A stretch of DNA of 47,960 nucleotides from a virus, in UHGV virus genome UHGV-1380525. One strand, given 5' to 3'. Positions 863 to 45,843 of this stretch are shown piece by piece. The translations under genes were made by a program, and so were the position numbers. Position 1 is the stretch's first letter, and each line of letters starts with the position of its first letter. Under the pieces are notes generated by a model that saw only the letters and a program-made list of their open reading frames with translations, was not told the DNA's origin and did not search any database.

Positions 863-888
863 AGCCCACGAAAGTGGGCTTTTTTTTA
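863..888. terminator. bidirectional rho-independent terminator
   Basis: agcccac-gaaa-gtgggct hairpin followed by T8. A-rich on the other side. Lies between convergent genes ending at 850 and 886. Confidence 0.75.
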
Positions 889-1542
889 ATTAACTTTATA
901 AATTATTGCTCTGTTACTTTTTCTTGGTGCAAGTTTATCCTCAGATATCAATCCTGTTGAAATCATCTTTTGAAGGCAAATCTCAACATTGTTTCTCGTA
1001 ACCCTCGCCTCTCTTGAGGTTGATATGATCAGCTCTTTCTTGGTCGTTCCTGCTTTTATTTTTTTTATGATGCAATCTTCTATGCCCTTGCTATCAATCC
1101 TTCTTATATCGTGAAGAGGAACAGCCAAACGGTACATTTCATGCGCTCTGTTGCTGCTTTTTGCGGCTGACTCGTCAGCGCATATGACACCAAGATCAAT
1201 CATTTCATCAAATGCCGCGTTTATTTTTTTTAATTCCACTCCAGATGCTGATGAAGCAGGTATTGTGATTGCACTTCTACTGGCGCAACCATCACGACCA
1301 ACCAGCATAGATATGATCCACATCTTTGCAATATCACATCCATTACCATGATGAGGCAATTTATTTGACGATGAAGCACCGCTTGTGCCGATGGCCATTT
1401 TCAATTGATATAGTTTATCTGAGAGCTTATCAAGAAACTCCTCCTCATCTTCATCAGTCACTGAGCACTGCCTAAGCTCAACCATTTTCGTGATGTCTAA
1501 AATACCCGCAACGCCATAAGAAAGTGATGTAGATTTGCTCAT
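886..1542 (-). CDS. stand-alone paralogue of the primase C-terminal DNA-binding (winged-helix repeat) region, 218 aa
   Basis: C-terminus ...LAPRKSNRAIIYKVN and an internal AKSSNRAHEMY repeat resemble the 21..470 C-terminus (...AKRTSNRAIIYKLVN, ...SKSNDRRVEG). GGAGG RBS 9 nt upstream. Confidence 0.6.
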   Translation of the reverse strand: MSKSTSLSYGVAGILDITKMVELRQCSVTDEDEEEFLDKLSDKLYQLKMAIGTSGASSSNKLPHHGNGCDIAKMWIISMLVGRDGCASRSAITIPASSASGVELKKINAAFDEMIDLGVICADESAAKSSNRAHEMYRLAVPLHDIRRIDSKGIEDCIIKKIKAGTTKKELIISTSREARVTRNNVEICLQKMISTGLISEDKLAPRKSNRAIIYKVN

Positions 1543-2110: not shown

Positions 2111-2139
2111 TTGACGTAGATTGAGCGCCATCGTATAGT
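2111..2139 (+). promoter_or_regulatory. early promoter TTGACG-17-TATAGT. The -35 sits inside the conserved TTGACGTAGATT module.
   Basis: Hexamers and spacing read directly. First gene ATG is at 2171, with an AAGAGG RBS. Confidence 0.65.
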
Positions 2140-6135: not shown

Positions 6136-6234
6136 CTGATTTATAATAATCAATGCGGCTAGGGGGCACCCGAAAAGCGACTCATCACCGCCTGCCGCAT
6201 TCACTTCAATGATGCCCTGATGAGGAATCTATAT

Positions 6235-8754
6235 ATGGCACGCAAAAGACTCTCAGCACCAGCAATTGAAAAACTCGAAGAGATTATTGGCGATGGCGTG
6301 ATTGATGCGCCTGAATCTGCGGTGTTCGGTGTTGTTAATACAGATAAGCAGATTGTTCGCAAACTAAAAATGACGCAAAGCGGAGTTGATGACGTTAGCG
6401 ACTCTGATATTGGCGTTGATCACCTGATACCAGAAAAGCTGGAAAAGCTACTTTACCCCAAGCGTAATAAGATTGTGTTTGGCGGGCGCGGATGCTTAGC
6501 CATCGGCACGATGGTGAGGATGTTTGATGGTAGCCTAAAACGCGTAGAGGATATCGTTGTTGGCGATAAGGTTATGGGTCCAGACAGTAAACCACGAAAT
6601 GTTTTAAACATCTGTCGGGGGTTTGATGACATGTATACGGTTCATCAAAAATATGCTGATGACTACACTGTCAACTCAAGTCACATACTGTCATTACGAA
6701 AGATTCCATCTGCTATCAGTGACGAGACAAAAACACCGGATGGTAAAAGAATTTATCGTTATTACCCGAATGAACCTGTAATACTGAATATTGGTGTTTC
6801 AGAATATTTGTCGCGCGCATCTTCCAAAAAGTTCCGCCATGTCTTTAAAGGGTGGCGAACAGGATGGGATTTTAATGACCAAAGCGTCCCAGTTGACCCG
6901 TACTTTCTTGGTTTATGGTTAGGTGATGGTTCATCTCGTGGTGTTGAAGTGTGCACGCCTGATCCAGAGATAGTTGACTACATTCACAACGTGGCAAGCA
7001 AATACGGGATGCAGGTAAAGGTTCGCGACGATGATAGATGCCCTGTCTATGCGATAACTAATGGTCGAGCTGCTGGCATGGGGAAGAACACCAACCCGTT
7101 ACTAACTAAAATGCAGCAGCTTGGGGTGATTAATAATAAACACATACCTGACTGCTATATCAAAAACAGCAGAGAGGTAAGACTTCAGATTCTGGCTGGG
7201 CTATTGGATACTGATTCGCATTATGACCAGAAAAAGAAAAGCTATTCTTTCACATCAATAAATAAAGAAATGGCCTTCTCTTTGATGGATGTGGCAAGAT
7301 CGCTTGGCTTCAAGTCAAGCATAATCAAAAAGACTGATGTCACCTTTGAATATAAAGGTGAGAAAAGAATATACGAAAAGGACGTATGGGAGGTGTTCGT
7401 TAGTGGTGACCTTCATACAATCCCATGCCGAGTAAAAAGGAAGATAGCAGAGAAAACCAAGTCAACCCGTGGAAAGATGACTGAGGTGTCATTGTCTTAT
7501 GTCGGGCATGGTGAATACGCTGGGTTCACTATTGATGGCGATCATCTTTTCCTGCTTGCTGATGGCACGGTTACACACAACAGCGGAAAAACAAGGACAG
7601 TAACAACAATACTTACGGAGCGTGCACGCTTTAAGCCTGACAGGATAGCTTGTTTTCGTGAGATTCAGCAGTCTATTGAGGATAGTTCATATCAGGAGCT
7701 GAAAGACGAGATTGACAGGAAGGGCGAGACAAAAGAGTTTCGCGTCATCAACAACGAAATAACACACAAGGTAACGAAAGCAAAGTTCCGCTTTAAAGGC
7801 CTGTATCGCAACCAGACGACCGTAAAAGGCTTCGCTGGCATTACAGTAGCTTGGGTCGAGGAGGCGGAAAACGTCAGCCAGACAAGCTGGGAAATCCTCA
7901 CCCCAACAGTCCGCGCTGAAGGGTCAGAGATATGGGTGACTTTCAACCCAAATAAAGAGCATGACCCGACGTGGAAAATATGGGTTGAGCCTTTTTATAA
8001 TAAATTGCGCGAAAATGGCGGCATCTATGAGGATGATGAAAACCTGATTATGGAGTGTAATTACTCAGACAATCCGTGGTTCTGGGATACTCCGCTCCCA
8101 AGCCAAATGCAACGCATGAAAGAGACCGACTTCGACCGCTATCAATGGGTGTGGGGTGGGCGCTTTAATAAGCGTAATGATGAGCAGGTATTTGGCGGTA
8201 AGTGGCGCGTTGCTGATTTCGAGGTTAAGCCGGAATGGCATGGGCCTTACTTTGGCATCGACTTTGGATTCTCGCAGGACGCAACGGCGATGGTTGAGGT
8301 TTACATTGAGAAACTTCCTGATGACCGCCGCAACCTTTACGTCGCGCGCGAATACGGCCGTGTAGGCCTTGAGATTACCGACACACCTACAGCGATGGAG
8401 CAATCATTCCCGCTCTCCAGGAAAGCAAGATGGTATGGGGACTGCTCTCGGCCAGAAACAATCAGTCACATCAAACGCGCAGGATTTGATATCCATCCAT
8501 GCAATAAGTGGCCCGGGAGCGTGGAGGATGGTGTAACCTGGCTCAGGGGTTGCGACAGCATCATCATTCATGACCGCTGCACACAGACTCAGGAAGAGTT
8601 CACTATGTACAGTTACAAGGTGGACAAGTTGACGGGTAACGTGCTCACAAATATTGTGGATGCGTGGAACCACTTCATTGACGCAATCAGATATGCATGC
8701 AACGATCACATCGTACAGCGTGGCTCTGGATGGATTAGAAGGAGCAGGAGATAA
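6235..8754 (+). CDS. terL: terminase large subunit precursor containing an intein (alternative start 6220). Exteins are 6235..6492 and 7582..8754.
   Basis: Walker A GGRG|SGKT is split by the intein. The C-extein has terminase ATPase and nuclease-like motifs. Confidence 0.85.
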   Translation: MARKRLSAPAIEKLEEIIGDGVIDAPESAVFGVVNTDKQIVRKLKMTQSGVDDVSDSDIGVDHLIPEKLEKLLYPKRNKIVFGGRGCLAIGTMVRMFDGSLKRVEDIVVGDKVMGPDSKPRNVLNICRGFDDMYTVHQKYADDYTVNSSHILSLRKIPSAISDETKTPDGKRIYRYYPNEPVILNIGVSEYLSRASSKKFRHVFKGWRTGWDFNDQSVPVDPYFLGLWLGDGSSRGVEVCTPDPEIVDYIHNVASKYGMQVKVRDDDRCPVYAITNGRAAGMGKNTNPLLTKMQQLGVINNKHIPDCYIKNSREVRLQILAGLLDTDSHYDQKKKSYSFTSINKEMAFSLMDVARSLGFKSSIIKKTDVTFEYKGEKRIYEKDVWEVFVSGDLHTIPCRVKRKIAEKTKSTRGKMTEVSLSYVGHGEYAGFTIDGDHLFLLADGTVTHNSGKTRTVTTILTERARFKPDRIACFREIQQSIEDSSYQELKDEIDRKGETKEFRVINNEITHKVTKAKFRFKGLYRNQTTVKGFAGITVAWVEEAENVSQTSWEILTPTVRAEGSEIWVTFNPNKEHDPTWKIWVEPFYNKLRENGGIYEDDENLIMECNYSDNPWFWDTPLPSQMQRMKETDFDRYQWVWGGRFNKRNDEQVFGGKWRVADFEVKPEWHGPYFGIDFGFSQDATAMVEVYIEKLPDDRRNLYVAREYGRVGLEITDTPTAMEQSFPLSRKARWYGDCSRPETISHIKRAGFDIHPCNKWPGSVEDGVTWLRGCDSIIIHDRCTQTQEEFTMYSYKVDKLTGNVLTNIVDAWNHFIDAIRYACNDHIVQRGSGWIRRSRR
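6493..7581 (+). mobile_element. intein (363 aa) with a LAGLIDADG homing-endonuclease domain, inserted in the terminase P-loop
   Basis: Starts with Cys (CLAIGTMV) and ends with ...VTHN followed by Ser as the +1 nucleophile. Two LAGLIDADG motifs are present: LGLWLGDGS and LAGLLDTDS. Confidence 0.8.
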
Positions 8755-8769: not shown

Positions 8770-9060
8770 CTATTTGTAAAGCCAGCAGTGAATCCCCGCA
8801 TTTCGCATTGCGGCATAAATCACGTCATCAGACACGACCGCCATCGCCACCCTGTCTGCGTCAATCTGCTGGTGCGAAGCCATGATGTCGTCATAGAAGA
8901 CATCGTTAGCATGCAGCCACTCATATGCATGCTTTGCCCTCATAATCAGCACATCATGCCCGGCAGAGTAGAGTGACTTAGCCAGTGCGACGTTGCCAGC
9001 AATGGCATTTCCTTCAACATCACGCAGCACGCCATCAAGCTCGAAAATGACACATTTCAT
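8770..9060 (-). CDS. small protein (96 aa) with a HAD-like motif-I signature (FELDGVL)
   Basis: ORF track. GGAG RBS. Driven by the TTGACG(9115-9110)-17-TAGATT promoter. Too short to be a complete HAD hydrolase. Confidence 0.45.
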   Translation of the reverse strand: MKCVIFELDGVLRDVEGNAIAGNVALAKSLYSAGHDVLIMRAKHAYEWLHANDVFYDDIMASHQQIDADRVAMAVVSDDVIYAAMRNAGIHCWLYK

Positions 9061-9148
9061 AAGATTTCTCCGAGAGGTTTCATTTTAATCTACGCCATGC
9101 TAGAATCTACGTCAAGGCTCATTGACATAACTACATCACCGAGGCATC

Positions 9149-9358
9149 ATGAAGGCATACTCATCTTTTTCGTGGGAGCAGAAGGAAAAAATATACTCAC
9201 TCGCAAGAGCTGGTGTGTCGGATGAAGCTCTGTGCGAAAGGTACGATGTTGATGAGGCTATCCTTCTGCGCATGTATGATGAAGTGCTGTGTGAGTTGCA
9301 GCGGCGCCGTGGTTACAGTGGCCTGAAGACGATTAACGATTTCTTTCGGAATGTTTAG
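9149..9358 (+). CDS. hypothetical protein, 69 aa
   Basis: ORF track. GAGG RBS. Confidence 0.45.
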   Translation: MKAYSSFSWEQKEKIYSLARAGVSDEALCERYDVDEAILLRMYDEVLCELQRRRGYSGLKTINDFFRNV

Positions 9359-13528: not shown

Positions 13529-13654
13529 TCAAGCCATTCTATTTTGTTCATTTAAATAAACCTCTCTAAGTTCACCCATCACGCTCAGCCATGCTGCATG
13601 CTCATCCATGCCGCGCATCACCAGCTTAACGTAGCGATTACGGGCCTTAAACAT
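13529..13654 (-). CDS. hypothetical micro-protein, 41 aa
   Basis: Hand translation of the minus strand downstream of 13669..13959. Confidence 0.3.
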   Translation of the reverse strand: MFKARNRYVKLVMRGMDEHAAWLSVMGELREVYLNEQNRMA

Positions 13655-13668
13655 CAGTAGCGGGCACA

Positions 13669-13959
13669 TTATTTGTCGCCCACCGTTGACAGGCAGACTT
13701 CACGGGCGACAGCGGCCACTTCTTTCGGTGTCTTGTCTGTCATTTTGTATGCCCCATCTACGATAGCCTTGCTGAGTTGGTTAAATTCAGCGCTATACTG
13801 GCCTCCAGAAGAAACCATCAGCGCGAGCTGCTTTGATACGCCAGCATCACGGGCTTCTGCTGCCGCTTCACCGAGCTCACCAACTGCATTGCAAAACTCG
13901 CCAGCCGACGCACCAAATGAAGCCATTGCGAATACTGCTGCTGCGATTAATTTTTTCAT
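13669..13959 (-). CDS. small secreted (periplasmic) protein, 96 aa, with a signal peptide
   Basis: MKKLIAAAVFAMASFGASA signal peptide. AGGAGAG RBS. Own promoter in the divergent module. Confidence 0.55.
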   Translation of the reverse strand: MKKLIAAAVFAMASFGASAGEFCNAVGELGEAAAEARDAGVSKQLALMVSSGGQYSAEFNQLSKAIVDGAYKMTDKTPKEVAAVAREVCLSTVGDK

Positions 13960-14005
13960 TTTTTACTCTCCTGTGTTTGTGTATCTACATCATCGCTTAC
14001 GATTC

Positions 14006-14034
14006 AATCTACGTCAAGACTATTGTGATAAAAT
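14006..14034 (+). promoter_or_regulatory. divergent promoter module. AATCTACGTCAA is TTGACGTAGATT on the minus strand, the -35 for the leftward gene. An extended -10 TGaTAAAAT drives the rightward lysis genes.
   Basis: Read directly. The same module recurs at 2111, 9104, 16795, 25781, 28685 and 30614. Confidence 0.55.
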
Positions 14035-14057
14035 AATCTGCATCACCGGAGGTAAAA

Positions 14058-14492
14058 ATGAAACTATCGCAGCGTGGCATTGATTTAATTAAACAATTCG
14101 AGGGTTACAGCTCGAAGGCATATCCAGACCCAGCCACTGGCGGAGCGCCGTGGACTATCGGTTACGGTACAACCAAAGGCGTTAAGCCAGGCATGGTTAT
14201 CACCGCACAGCAAGCGGAAAAGATGCTGCGTGACGACGTAGCGAAATTTGAAAGCGGCGTCTCATCACTCATCACTGCCCCAACCACTCAAGGTCAGTTT
14301 GATGCAATGGTGTCGCTGGCCTACAACATCGGGCTTGGTAACTTTGGCAAATCAACTCTGCTGAAAAAGCATAATGCCCGCTGCTACACCTGCGCCGCCG
14401 ACCAGTTCCGGGTATGGAATCGCGCCAATGGCAAAGTCATGAACGGACTGACCAAGCGCAGGGCGGCAGAACGTCAGGTCTACATGTCATGA
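14058..14492 (+). CDS. endolysin, GH24 lysozyme (T4 e / P22 gp19 type)
   Basis: IDLIKQFEGYSSKAYPDPATGGAPWTIGYGTT is the catalytic N-terminal signature of phage lysozymes. Confidence 0.9.
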   Translation: MKLSQRGIDLIKQFEGYSSKAYPDPATGGAPWTIGYGTTKGVKPGMVITAQQAEKMLRDDVAKFESGVSSLITAPTTQGQFDAMVSLAYNIGLGNFGKSTLLKKHNARCYTCAADQFRVWNRANGKVMNGLTKRRAAERQVYMS

Positions 14493-15203: not shown

Positions 15204-15217
15204 AGGGGCTTTGTTTT
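15191..15217. terminator. bidirectional rho-independent terminator
   Basis: gcccc-gtaaa-ggggc hairpin with A-run and T-run flanks, between convergent units. Confidence 0.75.
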
Positions 15218-15380
15218 ACAGGTCATTAAGCCTGTCGACAATCTTGCTTCCTGCGCTCTCAAGGTCTTTATCTTCAAAGCCATCGGCCCACGCCTGCTTG
15301 ATACACTCCATTACCTGATTAAGCTCACCCTCAGTGAACTCAACAACATACTTTTTCTCTTCCATTTTTCTCTCACTCAT
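15216..15380 (-). CDS. hypothetical protein, about 54 aa (MSERKMEEKKYVVEF...)
   Basis: ORF track, with the start trimmed. ATGA-coupled to the upstream micro-ORF. Confidence 0.35.
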   Translation of the reverse strand: MSERKMEEKKYVVEFTEGELNQVMECIKQAWADGFEDKDLESAGSKIVDRLNDL

Positions 15381-15513
15381 ACAGTGGTTTAATTTTATAC
15401 CCAAACATGGCCGCGTTCTGATGCTCAACACTACCAGCAAAAGCCAGATAGCGGCGGCCACGGTTGCTGGTGATGATGTAGGCCTTTGGTACTCTATTCT
15501 GCTTTACCGGCAT
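15373..15513 (-). CDS. hypothetical basic micro-protein, 46 aa
   Basis: GAGGAGG RBS. Hand translation. Confidence 0.35.
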   Translation of the reverse strand: MPVKQNRVPKAYIITSNRGRRYLAFAGSVEHQNAAMFGYKIKPLYE

Positions 15514-15532
15514 TATTTACCAGCCTCCTCTG

Positions 15533-15874
15533 TCACTTTTCCTTGGCGGCAGCGCGAAACAGCGTCGCGGTCAGATAAAATCCACCAAGCCAGAAATAAC
15601 CAAGCGCGAACATTACTGCTATTTCGCAAAATGTCGTCACAACCTGGTATTTATGATGAATCCATAGCGGCTTTTTGTAGCGAGCAACGGATTTATCAAG
15701 CAGGTCTTTGCTTGACAGCAAGCCAACCGATGCAATGATTGACGCAATCGACATGAACCAGAAAAAAGCCACAGCCATATTGTATGCATACACATTCTGC
15801 ATAAACAGGCCGAAGTAAATCAGCGGCCACATCAGGAGGATATCCCATGCGATGTTTTTCAGGAGTCTTTTCAT
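15533..15874 (-). CDS. membrane protein with 3-4 TM helices, 113 aa
   Basis: Hydrophobic helices throughout. Overlaps its neighbours. Confidence 0.55.
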   Translation of the reverse strand: MKRLLKNIAWDILLMWPLIYFGLFMQNVYAYNMAVAFFWFMSIASIIASVGLLSSKDLLDKSVARYKKPLWIHHKYQVVTTFCEIAVMFALGYFWLGGFYLTATLFRAAAKEK

Positions 15875-16098
15875 AGTTTCACCATCGATGCTTTGCTAAC
15901 ACTTTTGTTGATGTGCTGGATGCATTTTATAATCTCCCCAACCTCATCAATGGTGAATACGCTGCCATCATATAAGATGCTGACCCTGTCACCGGTCACT
16001 TCAATAGTCAGGTGCTTGCCTTTTAATCGTGCGGCAAACCCATTGCACTCAAAGTGCCCCGACTCTTGTGCTTCAGTGATTTTGCATTGTGCCATCAC
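15871..16098 (-). CDS. hypothetical protein, 75 aa
   Basis: ORF track. Confidence 0.5.
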   Translation of the reverse strand: MMAQCKITEAQESGHFECNGFAARLKGKHLTIEVTGDRVSILYDGSVFTIDEVGEIIKCIQHINKSVSKASMVKL

Positions 16099-16568
16099 TT
16101 TACCTCCCCATTCAGTTCATTAACAATTAATGTTGCATAGCCAGCAATGTCTTTCCAGCTATCGTCGTATGTCGGGTCGCCATTCAAGATTCTACCGATT
16201 TTATGCTGAATCATGTCGAGCGCCTCCTTCTGGCTCGCCGTCAGGGTATTCCAGCCGTCAACGTCGCGCATGGTGTCTTTCAGTGACTGCATGATATCTG
16301 CGCCATATTTGAATTTGCCATAACGGCTGCCGCGCTCGGTGATGAGGGCTTCTGTGGAGCTGGCGCGCCCATTCAAGTCATCATCAGTTACTGGCTCACG
16401 ATGAGCGATAACAATATCGCCAGACTTTTCGATATCCTTATCTCGCCCTGCATAATCCGCGCTGAGGTAGTGGATTTTGCCACTGGTTGCTGATTTTACA
16501 GCAAGAACGGCATCTTCATGACCATTAAAATAATCAGCACTTCCCTTCAGGTATTTGTATTTCATCAC
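16095..16568 (-). CDS. hypothetical protein, 157 aa
   Basis: ORF track. Confidence 0.55.
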   Translation of the reverse strand: MMKYKYLKGSADYFNGHEDAVLAVKSATSGKIHYLSADYAGRDKDIEKSGDIVIAHREPVTDDDLNGRASSTEALITERGSRYGKFKYGADIMQSLKDTMRDVDGWNTLTASQKEALDMIQHKIGRILNGDPTYDDSWKDIAGYATLIVNELNGEVK

Positions 16569-16765
16569 TCCACCCTCAGCGTAACCTTGTTTTTCTCATC
16601 CACACTGAAGTGTTCGCGCACAAACGCATACATTTCTTCAGTGCTCCATTCCCGCATTGCTACATAGCAGTGCGCGTAATATCTGACATCTCGCAGGCTT
16701 AACGGCTGGCGCTTAGCGATAATTTCAGTCAGTGCTTCCAGTGGTTCTTTGCGTTGTCTCGCCAT
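16565..16765 (-). CDS. hypothetical protein, 66 aa, first gene of the minus-strand cassette
   Basis: CAGGAG RBS. Promoter lies in the 16786-16840 module. Confidence 0.5.
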   Translation of the reverse strand: MARQRKEPLEALTEIIAKRQPLSLRDVRYYAHCYVAMREWSTEEMYAFVREHFSVDEKNKVTLRVE

Positions 16766-16860
16766 TGTCGCTCTCCTGTGAAATCATCTTGACTAATCTA
16801 CGTCAATTAGTCAATACTAGGTGTTGTAGATTGTATCATAGTTGCGAGAGGTGGTGTGGA

Positions 16861-17076
16861 ATGAAGAAGTGGCAGGAGGTGACAGAAGTTCATAAGCGCG
16901 ATTGCCGGGAGACTCTGCAAATGCTTAATGTGCCAGAGTCAATCATTAAATCTATCGAGCAGCGCATTGACCTCGCTGCTATGGAGGCCGCCCATGAAGC
17001 CGAGGAAGCGCAAATGTTGTCATGGATGGACGGAACTCTACCGGGCGTTTTACGTCGTGGTAAGACTACCGATTGA
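16861..17076 (+). CDS. hypothetical protein, 71 aa
   Basis: ATG with an AGAGGTGG RBS. Confidence 0.5.
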   Translation: MKKWQEVTEVHKRDCRETLQMLNVPESIIKSIEQRIDLAAMEAAHEAEEAQMLSWMDGTLPGVLRRGKTTD

Positions 17077-17351: not shown

Positions 17352-17584
17352 AACCAATGATGAATGATGAGAAATTACTAGAGTGTCCGTTTTGCGGTAG
17401 CGAAAATTCCATGCGGAACAAGGATGGGCAATGGCATTTTGTAGTATGCCAGGATTGCGGCTGCCGTACTGATGACTGGATGGTTGCGGCGACAGCAATC
17501 ATTAAATGGAATACCAGAAATGGCCACCTCTATACCGCTGACGACTACAAGCAAGATGCAATGGAGCGCGCAAATGGACTTTAA
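17348..17584 (+). CDS. Lar-like restriction-alleviation family protein (zinc ribbon)
   Basis: LLECPFCGSEN...VVCQDCGC is the CPFCG motif typical of the Lar family. ATGA overlap. Confidence 0.55.
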   Translation: MKPMMNDEKLLECPFCGSENSMRNKDGQWHFVVCQDCGCRTDDWMVAATAIIKWNTRNGHLYTADDYKQDAMERANGL

Positions 17585-18044
17585 AACGCAAATACTCACG
17601 GTGATAGAGCGCTGCGGCGGCGCAACCAATGCCATGATACGCAAGCAGACTGGCATGACAAACCGAGCCAGCGTTACAGGCTATCTGATTGAGCTGGAGG
17701 GTATGGGATTTATTATTAAAGAGGAAAGCGTCAGATATGGCAGGCGCTGCTTTAAGTATTTCCTCAATCCCGATAATACTGCGCTCGATTTGGCTATTCA
17801 GACTTATCTTGAGGCGAATCCTGGGCGTAAGAGCAAGCAGATAGCAGAGGCTGTCGGCGTCAACTACACCATTCTCAAGGCACGCATGCGCTATCTGGCA
17901 AGCATTGGTCAGGTTGACCGTGAAATGCTTCCCGGCGGTGCATGGAAATATTACTGGCAGGAGATCATCCCGTTTGGCATGAGCCGTGACAGGATGATGT
18001 TTGAAAAGCTGCTTGCTGGGGCACGTCAGTCATGTGGGCGGTAA
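17574..18044 (+). CDS. double winged-helix DNA-binding protein, 156 aa
   Basis: Two wH-like repeats: ILTVIERCGGATNAMIRKQTGMT... and QIAEAVGVNYTILKARMRYL... Confidence 0.5.
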   Translation: MDFKTQILTVIERCGGATNAMIRKQTGMTNRASVTGYLIELEGMGFIIKEESVRYGRRCFKYFLNPDNTALDLAIQTYLEANPGRKSKQIAEAVGVNYTILKARMRYLASIGQVDREMLPGGAWKYYWQEIIPFGMSRDRMMFEKLLAGARQSCGR

Positions 18045-21820: not shown

Positions 21821-21846
21821 AGGGGGGCGTTAGCCCCCTTCTTTAT
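21821..21846. terminator. rho-independent terminator (gggggc-gtta-gccccc followed by a T-rich run)
   Basis: Read directly. Confidence 0.7.
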
Positions 21847-22627
21847 ACCTTATCTCGCCATAAACCATCCACTGAAGCATGTAGCACCACTCCCACTCTG
21901 TAATATCATCCCTTAGCCATCGGCTATTCTTTTTGAAATTATACTCGGCAGGCTCGGCTTTAAGGTTATGCAAGCAATTAACTAGCTCTGGATACACAAG
22001 CCCATTCTTAACAAACCAGTTCACAGGAAGAATATGGTCAATATGCCAAGAGCTTCTATCATCAAAGCTCATCCATGGCTCCATTGTCGACTCTATATGG
22101 TTGACAAATTCATCCTTTGAGTAACCAAGAACTTCATCAATGCTTGAATCAGAAAGAATGGCGCCGATCTTGATATCCATTCTTTCCAGGGCCTTCCTAA
22201 GGAGTAGATGGTGCGGGTTATCCATCATCCATTGTTTTACGTTTTGCAATGCCTTTGCGTTACCATTTTTTGAGTAATACCATTTACGATAAATCTTCCT
22301 TTTCTTTTCCAGGAACGCTTCACGCCTTGAAGGGTCAGACTTTACGCGCCTTATGTAGGCTTTATCTTTTTCTGATTTCTTTTTCCTGTTTTCAGGCATA
22401 GAGTAATATTTGTCATATGATTTTTTCCGGCTAATGCGCTCCTTTTCCTGCCCCTCGCTTGTTGCGCGCTTAGCTCTGGTGAACTCATACAAGCAATCCT
22501 TGCATTTCCCACAGCCAGCAGTAAAGAAAGTAGTGCACCCACACTTTGCGCAAGGGAACTCAGTGCAGACAAACTGCTTTAATCCCTGCTCTCTGGCTTT
22601 AATGGCCAGTTCTTTTCTTGTGGTCAT
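21830..22627 (-). CDS. HNH-type endonuclease with an N-terminal Cys-rich zinc finger, 265 aa
   Basis: C-terminal SSWHIDHILPVN...NCLHNL...N is an HNH-like motif. CxxC x4 N-terminus. AAGGA RBS. Confidence 0.55.
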   Translation of the reverse strand: MTTRKELAIKAREQGLKQFVCTEFPCAKCGCTTFFTAGCGKCKDCLYEFTRAKRATSEGQEKERISRKKSYDKYYSMPENRKKKSEKDKAYIRRVKSDPSRREAFLEKKRKIYRKWYYSKNGNAKALQNVKQWMMDNPHHLLLRKALERMDIKIGAILSDSSIDEVLGYSKDEFVNHIESTMEPWMSFDDRSSWHIDHILPVNWFVKNGLVYPELVNCLHNLKAEPAEYNFKKNSRWLRDDITEWEWCYMLQWMVYGEIRYKEGG

Positions 22628-22670
22628 AGTGTAATCCTTGCTGATTTGGTTTTGCCATCTTAGCACATAT

Positions 22671-22679
22671 ACATGTCAT
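22671..22679 (+). promoter_or_regulatory. extended -10 promoter TGtTATAAT
   Basis: Perfect extended -10 located 40 nt upstream of the 22719 ATG. Confidence 0.6.
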
Positions 22680-22718
22680 GTGTTATAATTAATCAACATC
22701 AAAATAGAGGTATTTATC

Positions 22719-23805: not shown

Positions 23806-24342
23806 CTAAATTCGCATTGGCATAACGATAACCTTGGCAGTCTCGCCAGTAGGCGCATTAATGTTTGCGACGGCGGCGCTGGTGTTTCCATTAAGCTCAA
23901 ATAACACCGCCTCACATTTATGGTTAAACAGCTTCGCCAGCTTCTCTACATCTGCCAGATATTTGGCGTTGAAGCAGATTTGCTCTGTTGCCGCTGTCTG
24001 CTTTGGGATAACACGATCAATGTCAGGGAATCGGCCATAAATCTCAGAGCAGATACCTGCGCCTACCATGATTTCATGCTCGTCATGGTAAGTAACAATA
24101 CCTGTTTTGGTGTCCAGTAGCGCATACGCATAGCGCTTGGTTGGCGACTTGCTGACAGAAACGATAACGTTATCTTTCAATTTATTTTCATGCTTACTGG
24201 AAATCATGGCGCGATGACCGTCAGTAGCGGCAACGCGACCATCAGGCATAAAGCAAATGCCATTCAGGTAATAGCGAGCATCCTGTTTGGCCTGGAACAT
24301 CAATGCGCCTTCAAGAAGTAATTTGCTGATTTTTAATTTCAT
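23806..24342 (-). CDS. truncated DNA polymerase III beta sliding-clamp (DnaN) homologue: domain II plus the distal half of domain III, 178 aa
   Basis: QDARYYLNGICF...VAATDGHRAM matches E. coli beta QDVRYYLNGMLF...TVATDGHRLA. GRFPDIDRVIP matches GRFPDYRRVLP. C-terminal VIVMPMRI matches YVVMPMRL. AAGGTGA RBS. Confidence 0.7.
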   Translation of the reverse strand: MKLKISKLLLEGALMFQAKQDARYYLNGICFMPDGRVAATDGHRAMISSKHENKLKDNVIVSVSKSPTKRYAYALLDTKTGIVTYHDEHEIMVGAGICSEIYGRFPDIDRVIPKQTAATEQICFNAKYLADVEKLAKLFNHKCEAVLFELNGNTSAAVANINAPTGETAKVIVMPMRI

Positions 24343-24515
24343 CACTTCACCTTTATCATGTGTTGTTTTGCAACCTTCAGACATTCATCGAAAATCTTGC
24401 CTTTCTTTTCACTCTGGTTGCGCATGTAGTGGGTAATTGCAGCCTCTATGGCCGCGTTGTCGATGCCCGGCAGTTTTTCGCGCAGGTTTTTCTCTATGAA
24501 TTGCTCGTGGTTCAT
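24342..24515 (-). CDS. hypothetical protein, 57 aa, translationally coupled between ParB-like and clamp-like genes
   Basis: TGATG overlaps at both ends. Hand translation: MNHEQFIEKNLREKLPGIDNAAIEAAITHYMRNQSEKKGKIFDECLKVAKQHMIKVK. Confidence 0.4.
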   Translation of the reverse strand: MNHEQFIEKNLREKLPGIDNAAIEAAITHYMRNQSEKKGKIFDECLKVAKQHMIKVK

Positions 24516-25330
24516 CACAGCTTCTCCAGAATCGCCAGCACTTCATTCAACTCAGCAGAAGGAAGGCGCAAAAATTCTTCTGTCTCCTGTGCCACATGCC
24601 CCTCGGCTACCACCATGTGATCTGCTTCTTTCAGCAACTGAATCAGGCGGTCAATCGGCTTAACTTTTTTGGCCTTGAGGGTTTTCGCCGTCACCTTATC
24701 TTTTCCCTGCGCTTTCGCTTCCTCAACGGCTGCATCAATAACGTTAACAGCATCATCGCCATGCTCACGTGCTACCGCAACGGCGTTGGCATAGCTGATT
24801 TGGCCTGCATTGATGCGTTGCTTGATGGCATCAGGTACATCACCAAGTGACAGGTGCATCTGCACATCAGAAACTGAGCGACCAACCTTCTTGGCGATTT
24901 CTTCATTCGTCCATCCGAACCCTTTCAGGCGCACATAAGCCTTTGCACGCTCAAGCGGGTCAAGCTGCTTTCCTTGACTGGATGACACCATGAAGGCGAT
25001 TTTATCCGCTTCATCGCCGGTGAAGTCTTTGCACTCAATGCGCGCAATTGGTACGCCGCGCTCAATGGCGCGCAATGCGCCAAGATAACGATGCTGGCCG
25101 TCAAGAATCTTGATGCGCTTTCCGTCGGCATCAGGAATAACAGTTAACGCCGGGATTGGCTGGCCTGATTCCCAGCACTGCGCGAAGTATTCAACGTGCT
25201 GCTCATCGGCTTCGCGGATGTTGTATCCCGGCTCAAGATAAAGCTGGTCGACAGGAACCTGATAACCTTTGTTGACCACGATTCCGCCGCGAGTTTCTTT
25301 GTCTGAGTAAATTTTTCCGAGAGATGTCAT
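24515..25330 (-). CDS. ParB-like nuclease-domain protein (ParB/Srx N-terminus plus HTH), 271 aa
   Basis: IKILDGQHRYLGALRA is the GxxRxxA ParB box. HTH at WTNEEIAKKVGRSVSDVQ. GAGGAAAAG RBS. Confidence 0.7.
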   Translation of the reverse strand: MTSLGKIYSDKETRGGIVVNKGYQVPVDQLYLEPGYNIREADEQHVEYFAQCWESGQPIPALTVIPDADGKRIKILDGQHRYLGALRAIERGVPIARIECKDFTGDEADKIAFMVSSSQGKQLDPLERAKAYVRLKGFGWTNEEIAKKVGRSVSDVQMHLSLGDVPDAIKQRINAGQISYANAVAVAREHGDDAVNVIDAAVEEAKAQGKDKVTAKTLKAKKVKPIDRLIQLLKEADHMVVAEGHVAQETEEFLRLPSAELNEVLAILEKL

Positions 25331-25340
25331 CTTTTCCTCA

Positions 25341-25454
25341 CTTTGATAAACAGATTGCGCTGGCAATGGCGAATCCGATAACGATTAATGCCAGCTTTAT
25401 TTTGAAGTTGCGCCATGCTTTAAGGTCTTCTTTGCGGATTTCGTGGCGAATCAT
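25341..25454 (-). CDS. 37-aa single-TM micro-protein
   Basis: ATGA-coupled to the upstream gene. Hydrophobic KLALIVIGFAIASAICL segment. Confidence 0.3.
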
Positions 25455-25729
25455 TGGGATTCTCCGAGTGCTTTTGCGATTGCAGCTTTAGCTTCCGAGG
25501 TATTAACGTAGATGCATGCGCGAGCTTCTAAATCCAGCAGTGCTTCCAGCAATTCAGGCGCGGCGGCGATGAGATTGGCATCTTCGCGCTGATAAACCGT
25601 ATCGCAAATGCATTCGCCATCCTCACCAAAAATAACTTCCAGATGGGTTAATGATTTATTATTCCAGTGCTGGCCCTTTTCATTCACTGACCACGGCCCC
25701 GGCGTACCTTTGAATTCATTCATCTTCAT
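25451..25729 (-). CDS. Ead/Ea22-like small protein, about 92 aa
   Basis: GPWSV...GECICD...DANLIAAAPELLEALLDLEA resembles the Ea22 domain of 3874..4431. AGAGGTGA RBS. Confidence 0.5.
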   Translation of the reverse strand: MKMNEFKGTPGPWSVNEKGQHWNNKSLTHLEVIFGEDGECICDTVYQREDANLIAAAPELLEALLDLEARACIYVNTSEAKAAIAKALGESQ

Positions 25730-25763
25730 CACCTCTAACATTTATTGTTGTTTCTACGTCATC

Positions 25764-25792
25764 ACTATAGCGACACCCTCAATCTACGTCAA
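25764..25792 (-). promoter_or_regulatory. leftward promoter TTGACG-17-TATAGT inside the conserved module. A second CTACGTCA copy lies at 25754-25761.
   Basis: Identical hexamers to the 2111 promoter. Confidence 0.6.
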
Positions 25793-25799: not shown

Positions 25800-25808
25800 T
25801 GATAAAAT
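25800..25808 (+). promoter_or_regulatory. rightward extended -10 promoter TGaTAAAAT
   Basis: Read directly. Confidence 0.5.
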
Positions 25809-27874: not shown

Positions 27875-27951
27875 TGGTTCCCGCGACAGGATTCGAACCT
27901 GTAATCATCCGATTATGAGTCGGGTGCTTTAACCAGTTAAGCTAAACTGGA
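27875..27951 (-). tRNA. tRNA-Met(CAT): tRNA-Met/Ile2-like (anticodon CAT) with a degenerate acceptor stem
   Basis: Hand-folded cloverleaf: D-stem GCTT/AAGC, anticodon loop CTCATAA, T-arm ACAGG-TTCGAAT-CCTGT, encoded CCA. Two acceptor pairs (4-69 A.G and 7-66 U.C) are non-Watson-Crick. Confidence 0.55.
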
Positions 27952-27954
27952 ATT

Positions 27955-28031
27955 TGGTGCACCATTCAGGATTCGAACCTGAAACCCAGAGGATAGAAGC
28001 CTCTTGCGCTATCCAATTACGCTAATGGTGC
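27955..28031 (-). tRNA. tRNA-Arg(TCT): tRNA-Arg (anticodon TCT)
   Basis: Acceptor GCACCAT/ATGGTGC is perfect. Anticodon stem AGAGG/CCTCT with loop CTTCTAT. T-loop TTCGAAT. CCA encoded. Confidence 0.85.
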
Positions 28032-28037
28032 TGAATG

Positions 28038-28125
28038 TGGCGGATAGTACAGGATTCGAACCTGTGAACCGTTTCCGGTTTATCGGTTAGCAACCGACTG
28101 CTTTCGGCCTCTCAGCCAACTATCC
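28038..28125 (-). tRNA. tRNA-Ser(GCT): tRNA-Ser (anticodon GCT), type II with a long variable arm
   Basis: Acceptor GGATAGT/ACTATCC. Anticodon loop TTGCTAA. 16-nt variable arm. T-arm ACAGG-TTCGAAT-CCTGT. CCA encoded. Confidence 0.85.
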
Positions 28126-28715
28126 GTATGTGCCTTTCTCACTCTCCCGACTAAATCGTAACATTGGGAGACTACGCGACCATTTGGTTTCTGCTATCAG
28201 CGTCATCAGGCGTAGTGTGTTCCGACCCGGATGCCTACTTGAAAGGCGGTGGTATCGTATGCTCGTTGTGTGGTGGCAGGTGCTGATATCCTGCTTGATG
28301 GTGAGCACCTCGTCTTAGGAGGCTATCTGTAACGTTGCCATCGCGTATCCTCTTTGCGCATCAGCCTGCGCATTCACCACAACGGAAAGAGCACTGAACG
28401 CTGCATTATGGCTCTATCTCAGCTGCGCCGACTGCAGTCCCGATATGACCAACCACTGAGAGGGTATCTGCCAATTACTTTTATGCTCGGTCAATGCTCT
28501 TACCTGTTGTGTGCCCATTATTAATCACACCGGGCCAGTGCGCCGAATTCATTGACAAGGATTCGGAAGACCTTGCTGGTGTTTAGCCGTTAGGCTACTG
28601 CCAGATACATTTCTTCGTTTGCATTTATCTTTGTGGTCAGTTTCTAAAAACCCGCAAAGTCGCACCGAAAACTATCTGACATTTAATCTACACCACCAAT
28701 AAAAACCTGTCAACA

Positions 28716-28724
28716 TGATATAAT
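28716..28724 (+). promoter_or_regulatory. extended -10 promoter TGaTATAAT for the major tail gene. The AATCTACACCA module variant lies at 28685-28695.
   Basis: Read directly. Confidence 0.6.
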
Positions 28725-29511: not shown

Positions 29512-29536
29512 TAAAGAAAACCCCCGAAAGGGGGTT
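29508..29536. terminator. bidirectional rho-independent terminator
   Basis: aaaaccccc-gaaa-gggggttt followed by T7. Confidence 0.8.
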
Positions 29537-29718
29537 TATTTTTTCAGCAATGAAGATACGCGGATTCTCCACAATGACAAGTTAGCGAGCGATACCGCTA
29601 ACTCCATGTGAATCAATCTAAGTTTTTCAATATCAACAAAGACCGGGGCGTTGTATTGTTGATTGCTTCTTATGTACTTTGAAATAGTATCAGCATCATT
29701 ATTATCAAGAGTCATCAT
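29536..29718 (-). CDS. hypothetical protein, about 60 aa
   Basis: ORF track, with the start trimmed to the MMM cluster that has a GAGGAGA RBS. Confidence 0.4.
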   Translation of the reverse strand: MMTLDNNDADTISKYIRSNQQYNAPVFVDIEKLRLIHMELAVSLANLSLWRIRVSSLLKK

Positions 29719-29980
29719 CATTCTCCTCTCTGATTGCAGCATCAAGTTGTCGACGCAACATACACAGCGCGCCATGCGGCATAAACTGATTAGCCATGCC
29801 ATCGAATATCTGCCGGTTTAATTTATTATCAATCCGCGGCCTTATTGCTGACCAGCATGCCCTGATTGCGTGATTTACAGGTCTGCGGTCCAGCATTGCG
29901 AGTCGTGCAGCTAACTCAATGGTAACGAGCGCATCAAGATACTGCTCGCAGGCGTAGCGATTTTCGTTATCCATCATCAT
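29705..29980 (-). CDS. hypothetical protein, 91 aa
   Basis: ORF track. ATGA-coupled to the HNH gene. Confidence 0.5.
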   Translation of the reverse strand: MMMDNENRYACEQYLDALVTIELAARLAMLDRRPVNHAIRACWSAIRPRIDNKLNRQIFDGMANQFMPHGALCMLRRQLDAAIREENDDDS

Positions 29981-30462
29981 TTACCATGGTTCTCATGAAA
30001 ATTATACTTAACCTCCGCCTTTCTCCTTGCTTCAGCGGCCATATTTAAGTCAGAAAACAATCCAAGATGAATCTTTACGCCATCAACTTTTATGTTTGAG
30101 GCCCATTTTTTATGTTGCTTATCCCATGAAACACCAGTAACACCTGATTTGTTTGTCACCCTGAACTTCATGTTGTGATTATTCTCTTTTGGAGTGACAA
30201 GCCTGAGGTTATCTATCTTATTGTTTGTTTTATTGTGGTCTATATGATCAATCTGCATTCCGTCAGGAATTTTCCCATTATGCATTTCCCAGATGATGCG
30301 ATGAACAAGATACTTGAAGCCATAGATTCCAACAATCTTATATCCATTACCTCCTACCGCCTTCACCTCGCTTCCTATTTTCACTCTGTTTGAGGTTCTT
30401 ATCTTCCAGTAAATAGCCCCATCACAATAATAAAAAATATCTGACCAATCAGTTATTTTCAT
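29977..30462 (-). CDS. free-standing HNH homing endonuclease, paralogue of 10586..11068
   Basis: HRIIWEMHNGKIPDGMQIDHIDHNKTNNKIDNLR. AP2-like C-terminus GVSWDKQHKKW. Confidence 0.85.
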   Translation of the reverse strand: MKITDWSDIFYYCDGAIYWKIRTSNRVKIGSEVKAVGGNGYKIVGIYGFKYLVHRIIWEMHNGKIPDGMQIDHIDHNKTNNKIDNLRLVTPKENNHNMKFRVTNKSGVTGVSWDKQHKKWASNIKVDGVKIHLGLFSDLNMAAEARRKAEVKYNFHENHGK

Positions 30463-30583
30463 CGAATGTCACCCCTACCATTGCAAGTAATTTTTTCGCC
30501 ATCAACTCGGCCTCATCATAGGTAAACCCGCAATCAACGTACAGGTCGATGTAAAATCTCAAATCAACATCAGTCTCGTTCAT
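30449..30583 (-). CDS. hypothetical acidic micro-protein, 44 aa
   Basis: Hand translation. GAGGG RBS. Overlaps the HNH start. Confidence 0.3.
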   Translation of the reverse strand: MNETDVDLRFYIDLYVDCGFTYDEAELMAKKLLAMVGVTFDENN

Positions 30584-30680
30584 ATGTCAAACCCTCAATC
30601 AACTTATGCTTTCAATCTACGTCAGTTTTGCGCCCCCTGTCAATGGTATAATTACGTCATTGTGAAAACAGGATTTAGAC

Positions 30681-40338: not shown

Positions 40339-40358
40339 ATTTAGCATTAATGCTAAAT
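40339..40358. repeat. 20-bp perfect palindrome ATTTAGCATTAATGCTAAAT
   Basis: Read directly. Confidence 0.9.
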
Positions 40359-40699: not shown

Positions 40700-41158
40700 T
40701 CAAAAGCTATCAATTTGTATACTCTTATCATGATGCTTTTTCAAAGGGTAATACGTTGCTCTCCAGCCATTGAATGCCATCATGGCTGCTTCCCATCCAA
40801 GGCATACGCACACAAAGCACCCCGCTCTTTTACTTGCCTCGAGATACTCAAGCTGACCATCCTCCCATTCGCAAAGTGTATGGTCTCTCCTCTTCATCTC
40901 AATGACAAGCGAGGGGTTCCCAGGGATTATTATATCTGAAGCTCCTTTGTTTAAAGCCCCCTTCTTTTTTAGATTATTAACTTCGTGCGCTCTTCTCTTT
41001 CCCTCGTTTGGGACGTGAAGAGCAAGGCGCCCAAAACTGTCAGGATACATTTTCTTCAACTGATTTATGAATGTTACAAGTTCAGCATCTTCTACAGGAC
41101 ATTTTTTATTGCGGTAGTCCTTTTCACCATAAATTTTTAACCATTCTGGAAAAATCAT
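40700..41158 (-). CDS. VRR-NUC domain nuclease, 152 aa
   Basis: PD-(D/E)xK-like DIIIPG...LVIEMKRRD. Confidence 0.65.
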   Translation of the reverse strand: MIFPEWLKIYGEKDYRNKKCPVEDAELVTFINQLKKMYPDSFGRLALHVPNEGKRRAHEVNNLKKKGALNKGASDIIIPGNPSLVIEMKRRDHTLCEWEDGQLEYLEASKRAGCFVCVCLGWEAAMMAFNGWRATYYPLKKHHDKSIQIDSF

Positions 41159-43789: not shown

Positions 43790-43851
43790 GCTTTCTCCTT
43801 TTTTGATTAACGAATTGTACATTAAATTCAAAACAGACGAAAGTGAATTGA

Positions 43852-43878
43852 TGTAAAAAAAGGGCCACGAATGGCCCT
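43852..43878 (-). terminator. rho-independent terminator on the minus strand after the DUF669 gene
   Basis: Minus strand reads AGGGCCA-TTCG-TGGCCCT followed by T7. Confidence 0.7.
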
Positions 43879-43894
43879 TGGTTATTTATTTAAA

Positions 43895-44431: not shown

Positions 44432-44447
44432 TTTTATGTCCTCTCGA

Positions 44448-45738: not shown

Positions 45739-45781
45739 AGTGTCCTCTCGAATAACTCAGCGTTGTTGCTGGTGTGACTAA

Positions 45782-45810
45782 AAGATACGACAGGACATTC
45801 GTCAGGTCAA
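45782..45810 (-). promoter_or_regulatory. leftward promoter TTGACC-17-TATCTT for the replication/recombination operon
   Basis: Read on the minus strand. Confidence 0.45.
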
Positions 45811-45814
45811 TAGC

Positions 45815-45843
45815 TTTACATAAAAATATTTTGCGTTTATCAT
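45815..45843 (+). promoter_or_regulatory. rightward promoter TTTACA-17-TATCAT
   Basis: Read directly. Gene ATG at 45870. Confidence 0.55.

Follow-up and report, generated by a model that had tools for sequence, protein, structure and literature searches.

The 47,960-bp stretch of viral DNA analysed here (UHGV-1380525; "the window" always means this whole stretch) is a complete genome, that of a virulent Klebsiella siphophage; it is circularly permuted, and both its ends fall inside the primase gene. Our subject is an 11-bp box, TGAYGTAGATT, which recurs in the promoter regions of this genome and has an exact copy at 14006-14016, in the divergent region ahead of the endolysin gene. The nearest database records are the phages DP01, KlebP_265 and KpV2811 (95% identity), belonging to a Roufvirus-like cluster; Salmonella phage Skate/seszw and the E. 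coli phages Sa179lw and swi2 are remoter relatives, with ~75% DNA identity in the capsid genes. The gene order of the window follows the annotations of DP01, VLCpiS13c and Skate, with rightward early, packaging, lysis, head and tail genes broken up by short leftward cassettes. Each of these cassettes extends from a box-bearing sigma-70 promoter to a terminator, and terminator-like hairpins that close them were found at 13486-13465, 15212-15192, 23800-23781 and 29537-29518. The leftward regions are the following.

8770-9060, 13529-13959, 15216-16765, 21830-22627, 23806-25741, 27875-28680 and 29536-30583, minus strand: leftward cassettes, that at 27875-28680 consisting of tRNA genes and a leader
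40700-45738, minus strand: leftward replication module

The replication region (40700-46112, plus the primase gene, which runs from 46109 and wraps to 470) encodes a helicase, a Sak4-like protein, a Gam-like protein, a single-stranded DNA-binding protein, the primase and a Cro-like helix-turn-helix (HTH) protein. It is non-orthologous to the corresponding region of Skate, whereas the structural genes of the two phages are 55-90% identical; on sequence comparison it is a clean module swap relative to Skate, and the single region without boxes.

Occurrence of the box in the window

The core unit of the motif is the 11-mer TGAYGTAGATT, of which the window holds seven exact copies against 0.06 expected, and, if one mismatch is allowed, 15 copies where 1.69 are expected (in 200 first-order Markov simulations the number never exceeded 6). 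A longer version, the 12-mer TTGACGTAGATT, occurs exactly at five positions, 2111 (+), 9104 (-), 14006 (-), 16795 (-) and 25781 (-), and 30614 (-) is a one-mismatch copy of it (CTGACGTAGATT). When two mismatches are tolerated the 12-mer is found 13 times against 3.26 expected, a number reached by none of 100 dinucleotide-preserving shuffles. Twelve of the 15 boxes with at most one mismatch lie in non-coding DNA, though this makes up just 7.8% of the genome (a curated fraction), and an unbiased k-mer count returned the box as the top 10-mer and 12-mer genome-wide and as the top intergenic 8-mer family. All box counts were obtained with a fixed consensus and allowed mismatches; iterative refinement of a position weight matrix (six seeds, 9-bit threshold) was dropped, as it moved off towards generic TGATG-rich coding sequence. 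The boxes occupy about eight junctions in a stretch of 30 kb. The box itself is asymmetric, its copies stand mostly in the same orientation and irregularly 17-35 bp apart, and 13 of the 14 boxes in divergent regions face leftward. The individual boxes and the promoter elements next to them are these.

1525-1535, plus strand: exact box TGATGTAGATT, situated within codons 3-6 of 886-1542, a leftward orphan gene
2112-2122, plus strand: box providing the -35 (TTGACG from 2111) for rightward transcription from the proximal early promoter, whose -10 is TATAGT at 2134-2139
9087-9097, minus strand: box TGGCGTAGATT, the -10 (TAGATT) of the promoter of 8770-9060, 17 bp from the 9104 box
9104-9114, minus strand: conserved box providing the -35 (TTGACG to 9115) for leftward transcription of the PNK/HAD-like gene 8770-9060
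9128-9138, minus strand: weaker third box TGATGTAGTTA with two mismatches, upstream of the 8770-9060 promoter
13982-13992, minus strand: box TGATGTAGATA with one mismatch, over the -10/+1 of the leftward promoter of gene 13669-13959
14006-14016, minus strand: exact box TGACGTAGATT, the focal site; T at 14017 completes the -35 TTGACG in the leftward promoter of gene 13669-13959
14026-14034, plus strand: extended -10 TGATAAAAT upstream of the endolysin gene (14058-14492), the box taking the place of a usable -35
14035-14045, minus strand: box TGATGCAGATT with one mismatch, directly 3' of the rightward -10 and over the likely endolysin transcript start
16795-16805, minus strand: box in the spacer of overlapping divergent promoters (rightward TTGACT at 16789-16794; leftward, the reverse complement of AGTCAA at 16809-16814)
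16822-16832, plus strand: box TGTTGTAGATT, inverted partner of the 16795 box, whose TAGATT can be the rightward -10 of gene 16861-17076
22681-22689, plus strand: extended -10 TGTTATAAT, called in the promoter scan as part of a plus-strand promoter with TG at 22660-22689
22691-22701, minus strand: box TGATGTTGATT with one mismatch, one base past the rightward extended -10
25751-25761, minus strand: box TGACGTAGAAA at the +1 of the 25781 promoter, near-invariant across clades and followed by a fully conserved 5' untranslated region (UTR)
25781-25791, minus strand: box providing the -35 (TTGACG to 25792) for leftward transcription of the operon of a ParB-like gene, with the -10 TATAGT at 25769-25764
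25800-25808, plus strand: extended -10 TGATAAAAT, 8 nt from the 25781 box
28685-28695, minus strand: box TGGTGTAGATT, the -10 of a leftward TTGACA (28713-28708)-17-TAGATT promoter (10/12 in the promoter scan)
28716-28724, plus strand: extended -10 TGATATAAT ahead of the major tail gene, adjoining the leftward -35 back to back
30614-30624, minus strand: box, the -10 of the leftward TTGACA (30643-30638)-18-TAGATT promoter of cassette 29536-30583 (10/12 in the promoter scan)
30644-30652, plus strand: extended -10 TGGTATAAT
30649-30659, minus strand: weak box TGACGTAATTA, into which the end of the rightward extended -10 reaches

An earlier note on this DNA had drawn attention to the motif as a conserved module, usually paired. 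Its enrichment over shuffled sequence is borne out by the above counts, and the box coordinates which that note listed all check out, including the second copies at 9087, 13982, 25751, 30649 and 16822 (+) and the variant at 28685. The list was nevertheless incomplete, as the exact box at 1525-1535 (+) and the one-mismatch boxes at 14035-14045 (-) and 22691-22701 (-) had been overlooked. It also contained one entry too many: the supposed AATCTA…TAGATT pair at 1569-1591 is really CTAATCT-N13-AGATTAG (1568-1594) and has no GTAGAT core. This inverted repeat is situated directly upstream of the start codon of gene 886-1542 (minus strand), whose 218-aa product has no Pfam or PHROG match and no Skate homologue.

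Two general interpretations of such repeats were rejected. Iterons of a replication origin do not fit, as the boxes are dispersed and none is present in the intergenic region 45739-45869 of the replication module, and RNA-level explanations do not fit boxes that lie upstream of starts and on both strands.

Promoter architecture and conservation of the junctions

The part played by the box differs from site to site. It is the -35 at 2111, 9104, 14006 and 25781 and the -10 at 9087, 28685 and 30614, at 13982 and 25751 it covers the +1, at 16795 it falls within the spacer, and at 14035, 22691 and 30649 it stands reversed directly after a rightward -10. In the promoter scan the sites at 2111 and 25792 both read TTGACG-17-TATAGT (10/12), the 9104 junction TTGACG-17-TAGATT (9115-9087) and the 14006 junction TTGACG-17-GATGAT (14017-13989). 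Promoter-like counts in the scan of the window were overall not above those in shuffles, and the support for these promoters thus comes from conservation and not from the scan alone. A helical phasing of the distances from box to -10 (~12, 22-23 and 32 bp) was seen, but the independent promoters are too few and the pattern was left unused.

Two architectures recur. At type I junctions (14006 and 25781) a box serving as the leftward -35 is found at a distance of 8-9 nt from the rightward extended -10 TGATAAAAT; the two junctions are paralogous and match each other in BLAST. At type II junctions (28685 and 30614, and 24322 in Skate) a rightward TGnTATAAT is placed back to back with a leftward TTGACA, and the box provides the leftward -10. 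The junctions at 9104, with two boxes 17 bp apart as -35 and -10, and at 16795, a quasi-palindrome with an inverted pair of boxes, are unlike either type. The picture of a single stereotyped bidirectional cassette, with TTGACG as the -35 and an extended -10 pointing rightward from every site, which had been drawn in the earlier note, is therefore accurate for only a part of the sites. A conserved rightward extended -10 is indeed present at four junctions (14026-14034, 25800-25808, 28716-28724 and 30644-30652), and one of the overlooked boxes, 22691-22701, also has such an element just upstream (22681-22689); the 9104 and 16795 junctions have none, and 2111 is itself a rightward promoter. Likewise, TTGACG is the -35 at 2111, 9104, 14006 and 25781, but not at 28685, 30614 and 9087, where the box is the -10, and at least two architectures plus the quasi-palindromic 16795 have to be distinguished. 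Judged by conservation the rightward extended -10 elements are real: TGnTAAAAT is kept across clades with its middle base free to vary (TGATAAAAT versus TGCTAAAAT).

Comparison with related phages reveals the same selectivity at the boxes themselves. The focal box at 14006 is kept in 25 distinct orthologous sequences and the 30614 box in 29, in both cases with a variable spacer; GTGGTGTAGATT at 28685 is conserved in 37 distinct sequences, and at 28685 and 30614 alike it is the TTGACA hexamer and the box that are kept while the spacer between them varies. The 16795 box reads TGAYGTAGATT in 50 distinct sequences, and even the weak box at 9128 is conserved in seven, one of which reads TGATGTAGATT. 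Upstream of the gene starting at 25741, GTTGACGTAGATTGA, TATAG, TGACGTAGAAAC and the whole 5' UTR are near-invariant in 67 distinct sequences, the 9-nt spacer between GTTGACGTAGATTGA and TGACGTAGAAAC being free to vary, a sign of purifying selection acting on all 11 positions of the box. The 14035 box is conserved inside the Klebsiella clade. Skate has TTGACGTAGATT at three orthologous junctions and, at no more than one mismatch, 18 boxes against 1.87 expected, 13 of them in the 5.5% of its genome that is non-coding. Its positions 45162/45179 repeat the two-box arrangement of 9087/9104, and TATAATCTACATCA and TATAATCAACATCA are arranged in it as the elements at 30644/30649. Its partner of the 16795 box is a perfect TTGACGTAGATT on the plus strand 40 nt from an ATG, and thus cannot act as a -35 there. 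The 12-mer TGATGTAGATAC at the 13982 position is inverted in place (GTATCTACATCA) in the Salmonella/E. coli clade. A third, uncultured clade (L072/L074), whose ParB-like protein is 68% identical, has another gene order and carries TGWCGTAGATA boxes at promoters, and the early promoters of Skate and of the L074 clade have TTGACGTAGATA at the -35 and a second box at the -10. When IMG/VR was searched for pairs of boxes no more than 30 bp apart, almost exclusively phages of the Roufvirus/Skatevirus-type family were retrieved; among the 12 hits on atypical contigs that were checked, two proved to be fragments of family members and the others did not resemble promoter boxes, several of them lying in apparent coding repeats (e.g. 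I-D-V-D).

These comparisons support the conclusion that the boxes mark real, conserved divergent promoter junctions. Because the role, position and orientation of the box vary while its sequence is kept, the box is not one fixed promoter part; the 11-mer is rather selected as one unit, as expected of a protein-binding site.

It is conceivable that the box is instead purely a sigma-70 promoter module (TTGACG/TAGATT), spread by duplication together with the accessory cassettes and kept for the host RNA polymerase. Such an interpretation agrees with the good geometry (TTGACG-17-TATAGT, TTGACA-17/18-TAGATT and TTGACG-17-TAGATT), with the clear paralogy of the 14006/25781 and likewise the 28685/30614 junctions, and with the alignment of nearly all boxes in divergent regions with leftward transcription. 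However, TAGATT(GA) past the -35 and TGAYG at -17 to -13, neither of which is read by sigma-70, are conserved while true spacers drift, boxes at +1 and reversed boxes do not serve as hexamers, one box has opposite orientations at the same place in different clades, and Skate has a full box where no -35 is possible. No sigma-70 contact is known that would conserve TAGATT(GA) beside a -35 or TGAYG at -17 to -13, and we consider the module unlikely to be the whole explanation. That the conserved part exceeds the needs of sigma-70 had already led the earlier note to argue for a regulator site, and this operator idea is upheld by the conservation.

The box might also be a single-element promoter, or a specificity element for a host RNA polymerase redirected by a phage factor in a manner similar to T4 late or middle transcription, with transcripts starting just downstream. 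All boxes except that at 1525 face a gene start 20-130 nt away on their own strand, the orientation of the boxes is strong, and tandem boxes could be tandem starts. In divergent regions, though, either orientation faces a gene, so the orientation test is weak; canonical -35/-10 pairs at 17-18 bp are already present, the position of the box relative to the hexamers is not fixed, and no sigma-like or AsiA/MotA-like protein was found among those scanned, all of which makes a redirected polymerase very improbable. A T4-like middle promoter with a MotA box was rejected on similar grounds, namely a box position varying from -35 to +1, the presence of canonical -35 hexamers and the lack of a MotA/AsiA-like match among the scanned proteins.

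A different type of explanation concerns the longer conserved blocks. The slot at 25451-25741 (minus strand; orthologues L004-L077) has a promoter and a 5' UTR, as far as the ribosome-binding site, that are near-invariant in 67 distinct sequences, while the first gene behind them is one of many unrelated genes; on this pattern it acts as a hot slot at which accessory genes are exchanged. Conserved blocks of promoter and 5' UTR could be mainly recombination linkers for swapping accessory cassettes between related phages, in keeping with the many unrelated N-termini behind the invariant 25781 promoter and 5' UTR and with cassette contents that differ among the window, DP01 and Skate. Linkers would account for long blocks, but not for an 11-mer repeated two or three times per junction in either orientation and with variable spacers, and exchange is more likely a consequence than a cause of the conservation. 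We therefore attach hardly any probability to this account.

Several other features of the cassettes and of genes near them deserve mention. The 28685 promoter heads a 555-nt leader followed by three tRNA genes (Met, Arg and Ser; 27875-28125, minus strand). In the leader itself (28126-28680, minus strand) no gene was called and short open reading frames (ORFs) of 56-62 aa occur on both strands; its predicted folding is no better than that of shuffles (z = -0.18), Rfam matches to it are sub-threshold only and tmRNA-like, and the Skate annotation has small hypothetical ORFs on the opposite strand at the equivalent place. A shared translation-initiation context, GAGGTGATGAAGAATG / GAGGTGATGAAGATG, is found at 2158-2172, at 25717-25735 and at 37672 in Skate, at the first genes of several box-driven transcripts, and AGGTGATGAA occurs four times. 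Two leftward cassettes contain genes for HNH-type endonucleases (21830-22627 and 29977-30462, both on the minus strand), the first of which is missing from DP01 at that position; both are probably free-standing homing endonucleases. The protein encoded by 23806-24342 (minus strand) is annotated as a RusA-like Holliday-junction resolvase in relatives, yet in our searches it gave no RusA match and only weak Pfam matches to domains 2 and 3 of the DNA polymerase III beta-clamp (E ~3e-3, below threshold). Finally, the large terminase gene (6220-8754, plus strand) carries an intein (Hint domain, 1.2e-19; LAGLIDADG homing-endonuclease domains, 8.6e-10 and 2.9e-8) inserted ahead of Terminase_3 and Terminase_3C, whereas the terminases of VLCpiS13c and Skate are uninterrupted and ~475 aa long.

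Candidate binders of the box

If the box is a protein-binding site, the most suitable candidate for its binder is encoded in the leftward cassette headed by the 25781 promoter.

24515-25330, minus strand: ParB/Spo0J/KorB-family protein with an N-terminal ParB domain and an HTH, the proposed box binder

The affiliation of this protein, a genuine relative of ParB, Spo0J, Noc and KorB, is based on Pfam matches to HTH_ParB (4.3e-11) and KorB (2.6e-6) and on matches to structures of Spo0J (PDB 1vz0, 1.4e-11, residues 41-193) and KorB (PDB 8qa8, 8.9e-5). With 81.5% identity between the window and Skate it is among the most conserved non-structural proteins. Its HTH, FGWTNEEIAKKV[G/A]RSVSDVQMHLSL, is unchanged in the three box-bearing clades apart from one G/A difference in one sequence, down to an overall identity of 68%. 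The gene is located behind a box-bearing promoter in every arrangement encountered, and in the rearranged L072/L074 clade boxes including an inverted GTAGAT pair lie directly upstream of it. The homologue from Klebsiella phage Kp4864-1, 48% identical, has an altered recognition helix (RSLSDVDYHLHL) and the genome of this phage is devoid of the box; no alternative intergenic motif was found in it either. Homologues with 43-44% identity (L078-L082) were discarded as a source of co-variation, as they belong to a different kind of element with no box and no repeated motif.

Within the window, no other conserved repeated non-coding motif or palindrome was found that could serve the ParB-like protein, and a search for parS-like palindromes returned only terminator hairpins and a single palindrome at 40339-40358. 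The latter is a perfect, single-copy 20-bp palindrome (ATTTAGCATTAATGCTAAAT) in non-coding DNA after the tail-fibre gene, and it was not found in the relatives' loci compared, most of which do not cover this region. Its arms, TTTAGC/GCTAAA, are those of the operator of KorB from plasmid RK2 (TTTAGCSGCTAAA), but they stand 6 bp apart.

Two further DNA-binding proteins of the window had been put forward in the earlier note as the possible regulator. One is a MarR-like protein with two winged HTH domains (17574-18044; PHROG "MarR family", 1.3e-49), the other a Cro/YdaS-type HTH protein (45870-46112; Pfam, 1.6e-17). Both have DNA-binding folds, two different winged HTH domains could read an asymmetric site, and gene 17574 is downstream of the box-bearing junction 16766-16860. 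Their phyletic distribution, however, does not follow that of the box. The Cro-type gene has no homologue in Skate, though Skate has 18 boxes, and its own intergenic region (45739-45869) is boxless. The MarR-like protein shares 37% identity with that of Skate and 36-43% between clades whose boxes are identical, the residues of its putative recognition helices are not the same, and no homologue was detected by profile hidden Markov model or tblastn searches in ~42.5 of the 48.6 kb of the L074-clade genome, including the syntenic lysis-head interval, or by a pattern scan of the L072/L074 contigs. We thus find it very doubtful that the box is an operator for either protein, and the ParB-like protein fits the phyletic and conservation pattern much better, although the evidence is circumstantial.

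A binder might alternatively be sought in the host, i.e. the box could be bound by a transcription factor or nucleoid protein common to Klebsiella, Salmonella and E. coli and exploited or evaded by the phage. A conserved enterobacterial factor would explain an identical box in phages of three host genera with differing phage regulators. On the other hand, the box is confined to one phage family in IMG/VR, and the invariant ParB-type HTH of the phage explains the invariance of the box equally well. The box is not known to match the consensus of any enterobacterial regulator, no formal comparison having been made, and a host binder appears very unlikely to us.

A putative operator and its implications

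We propose that TGAYGTAGATT is an operator embedded in sigma-70 promoter cores and bound by a phage protein, most likely the ParB/KorB-like protein 24515-25330, that would occlude the promoters; we rate this explanation at about an even chance. The box is present at the proximal early promoter and, in the lysis and morphogenesis half of the genome, at every divergent junction. One half of it, (T)TGACG, resembles a -35 and the other, TAGATT, a -10, and evolution would accordingly have placed it as whichever hexamer was needed, and elsewhere over the spacer or the start point. A phage protein reading the whole 11-mer would then occlude all box-bearing promoters. At the type I junctions it would sit where a rightward extended -10 lacks a -35, and so might tip the balance between the overlapping promoters. 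One protein could in this way bring about a coordinated shut-off of the leftward accessory cassettes and of the proximal early promoter and modulate rightward late transcription, and the ParB/KorB-like binder, its own operon being headed by boxes, would be autoregulated and act as a global regulator of the KorB type.

Several systems offer partial parallels. One is the regulon of KorB and its operators (OB) on the IncP plasmid RK2, where a ParB-family HTH protein likewise has sites dispersed in promoter regions, including that of its own operon, and thereby ties many operons to a single regulator (the KorB mechanism is treated in PMC11790492). OB is a 13-bp palindrome, whereas the phage box is asymmetric and lies inside -35/-10 hexamers. 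RK2 is moreover a plasmid, whereas here the replicon is a virulent phage and binding to the box is predicted; no KorA-like partner and no ParA/SopA ATPase was identified among the proteins scanned, which did not amount to a systematic scan of all window proteins. The phage-plasmid N15 provides a parallel among phages: Ravin, Rech and Lane reportedly described in J Bacteriol in 2008 that its SopB binds scattered sites near promoters and influences late gene expression. The likeness lies in a phage ParB-family protein with several sites scattered near promoters, binding being proposed in the present case; the N15 sites are, however, inverted repeats and serve plasmid partition with the SopA ATPase, whereas the phage studied here is lytic and has no evident partition ATPase.

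As to the layout of the junctions, protein p4 of phage phi29 governs an early/late switch at the divergent A2b/A2c-A3 promoters, its sites being inverted repeats at one locus. As there, a late promoter lacking a -35 is placed back to back with a strong early promoter, and the regulator site lies over the early -35 and upstream of the late -10, a layout by which one protein can repress one direction and favour the other. There is no sequence relationship between the two systems, the box module is present at about eight loci, and several rightward promoters have the box over the +1, which suggests repression of both directions. Because several rightward promoters carry the box in this position, general repression or homeostasis of the KorB type would be at least as likely an effect as an early-to-late switch of the phi29 p4 type. 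Operators of lambda CI and Cro at PR/PRM, too, lie in core elements of divergent promoters in multiple copies of graded match, but they are 17-bp palindromes at one or two loci and are bound by a dimeric HTH repressor, whereas the Cro-like protein of the window does not co-occur with the box.

An alternative effect may be anti-silencing. VirB of Shigella is a ParB-family anti-silencer (cited in PMC12704722) and a ParB-family protein repurposed for transcription; by analogy, the phage protein could counter H-NS, the phage with its 47% GC being AT-rich for a Klebsiella host. VirB sites need not overlap core promoters, whereas the boxes are on -35, -10 and +1 elements, which would fit occlusion better than anti-silencing. 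ParB-dependent thymine dioxygenase systems, on the contrary, are not a relevant parallel, as their ParBs have no DNA-binding domain (PMC13229309).

A number of observations speak against an operator read by the ParB-like protein. ParB-family proteins normally bind palindromes, but the box is asymmetric and present in the window mostly in direct copies; no palindromic site of 13-16 bp emerged, close inverted GTAGAT pairs (e.g. GTAGATAATAATCTAC) occurring in the L072/L074 clade only. The motif for binding cytidine triphosphate (CTP) is degenerate, GQHRYLGA compared to GERRYRAA in Spo0J, the G and the second R being kept and the E and the first R not. Other small conserved proteins (16565-16765, 24342-24515 and 9149-9358) could be the binder instead; a Pfam scan of other small conserved proteins identified no DNA-binding domain. 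For the third clade, the lack of the MarR-like protein was judged from ~87% of the genome. The boxes also cover rightward late promoters, and no simple logic of "early off, late on" is evident. The leftward bias of 13 of 14 boxes is expected of parts of leftward promoters, while an operator accounts for it only through the dual coding of hexamers, and this keeps the promoter-architecture alternative alive. Lastly, for no member of the family did our literature search yield data on binding, footprints or transcript starts.

Operators inside divergent promoters and a global regulator with dispersed sites are of a familiar kind. What is not familiar is the combination proposed here, in which a box without symmetry serves as the one hexamer or the other, recurs at about eight junctions in a virulent phage and is possibly read by a ParB-fold protein. 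More tentatively, the Roufvirus/Skatevirus virulent siphophages of enterobacteria may have repurposed a protein of the ParB-CTPase family as a genome-wide transcription switch reading an asymmetric 11-bp box, which would be written into the -35 or -10 hexamers of host-type promoters wherever divergent junctions occur; with the same reserve, this might amount to a regulon of the KorB/VirB kind, but in a lytic phage and with a site that is not palindromic.

Phages of the Roufvirus/Skatevirus type are collected for therapy against Klebsiella, Salmonella and E. coli, and our literature search found no description of the box motif or of their transcription programme. The box provides a concrete map of about eight putatively regulated junctions together with a single testable regulator. 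The conserved promoter/UTR slots that accept varied accessory genes represent ready, natively regulated insertion sites for phage engineering. Should the box indeed be bound by the ParB-like protein, the roles of the ParB fold outside chromosome segregation would be extended to a virulent phage and to an asymmetric site, and the finding would explain why a "partition" protein is kept by lytic phages that have no plasmid stage.

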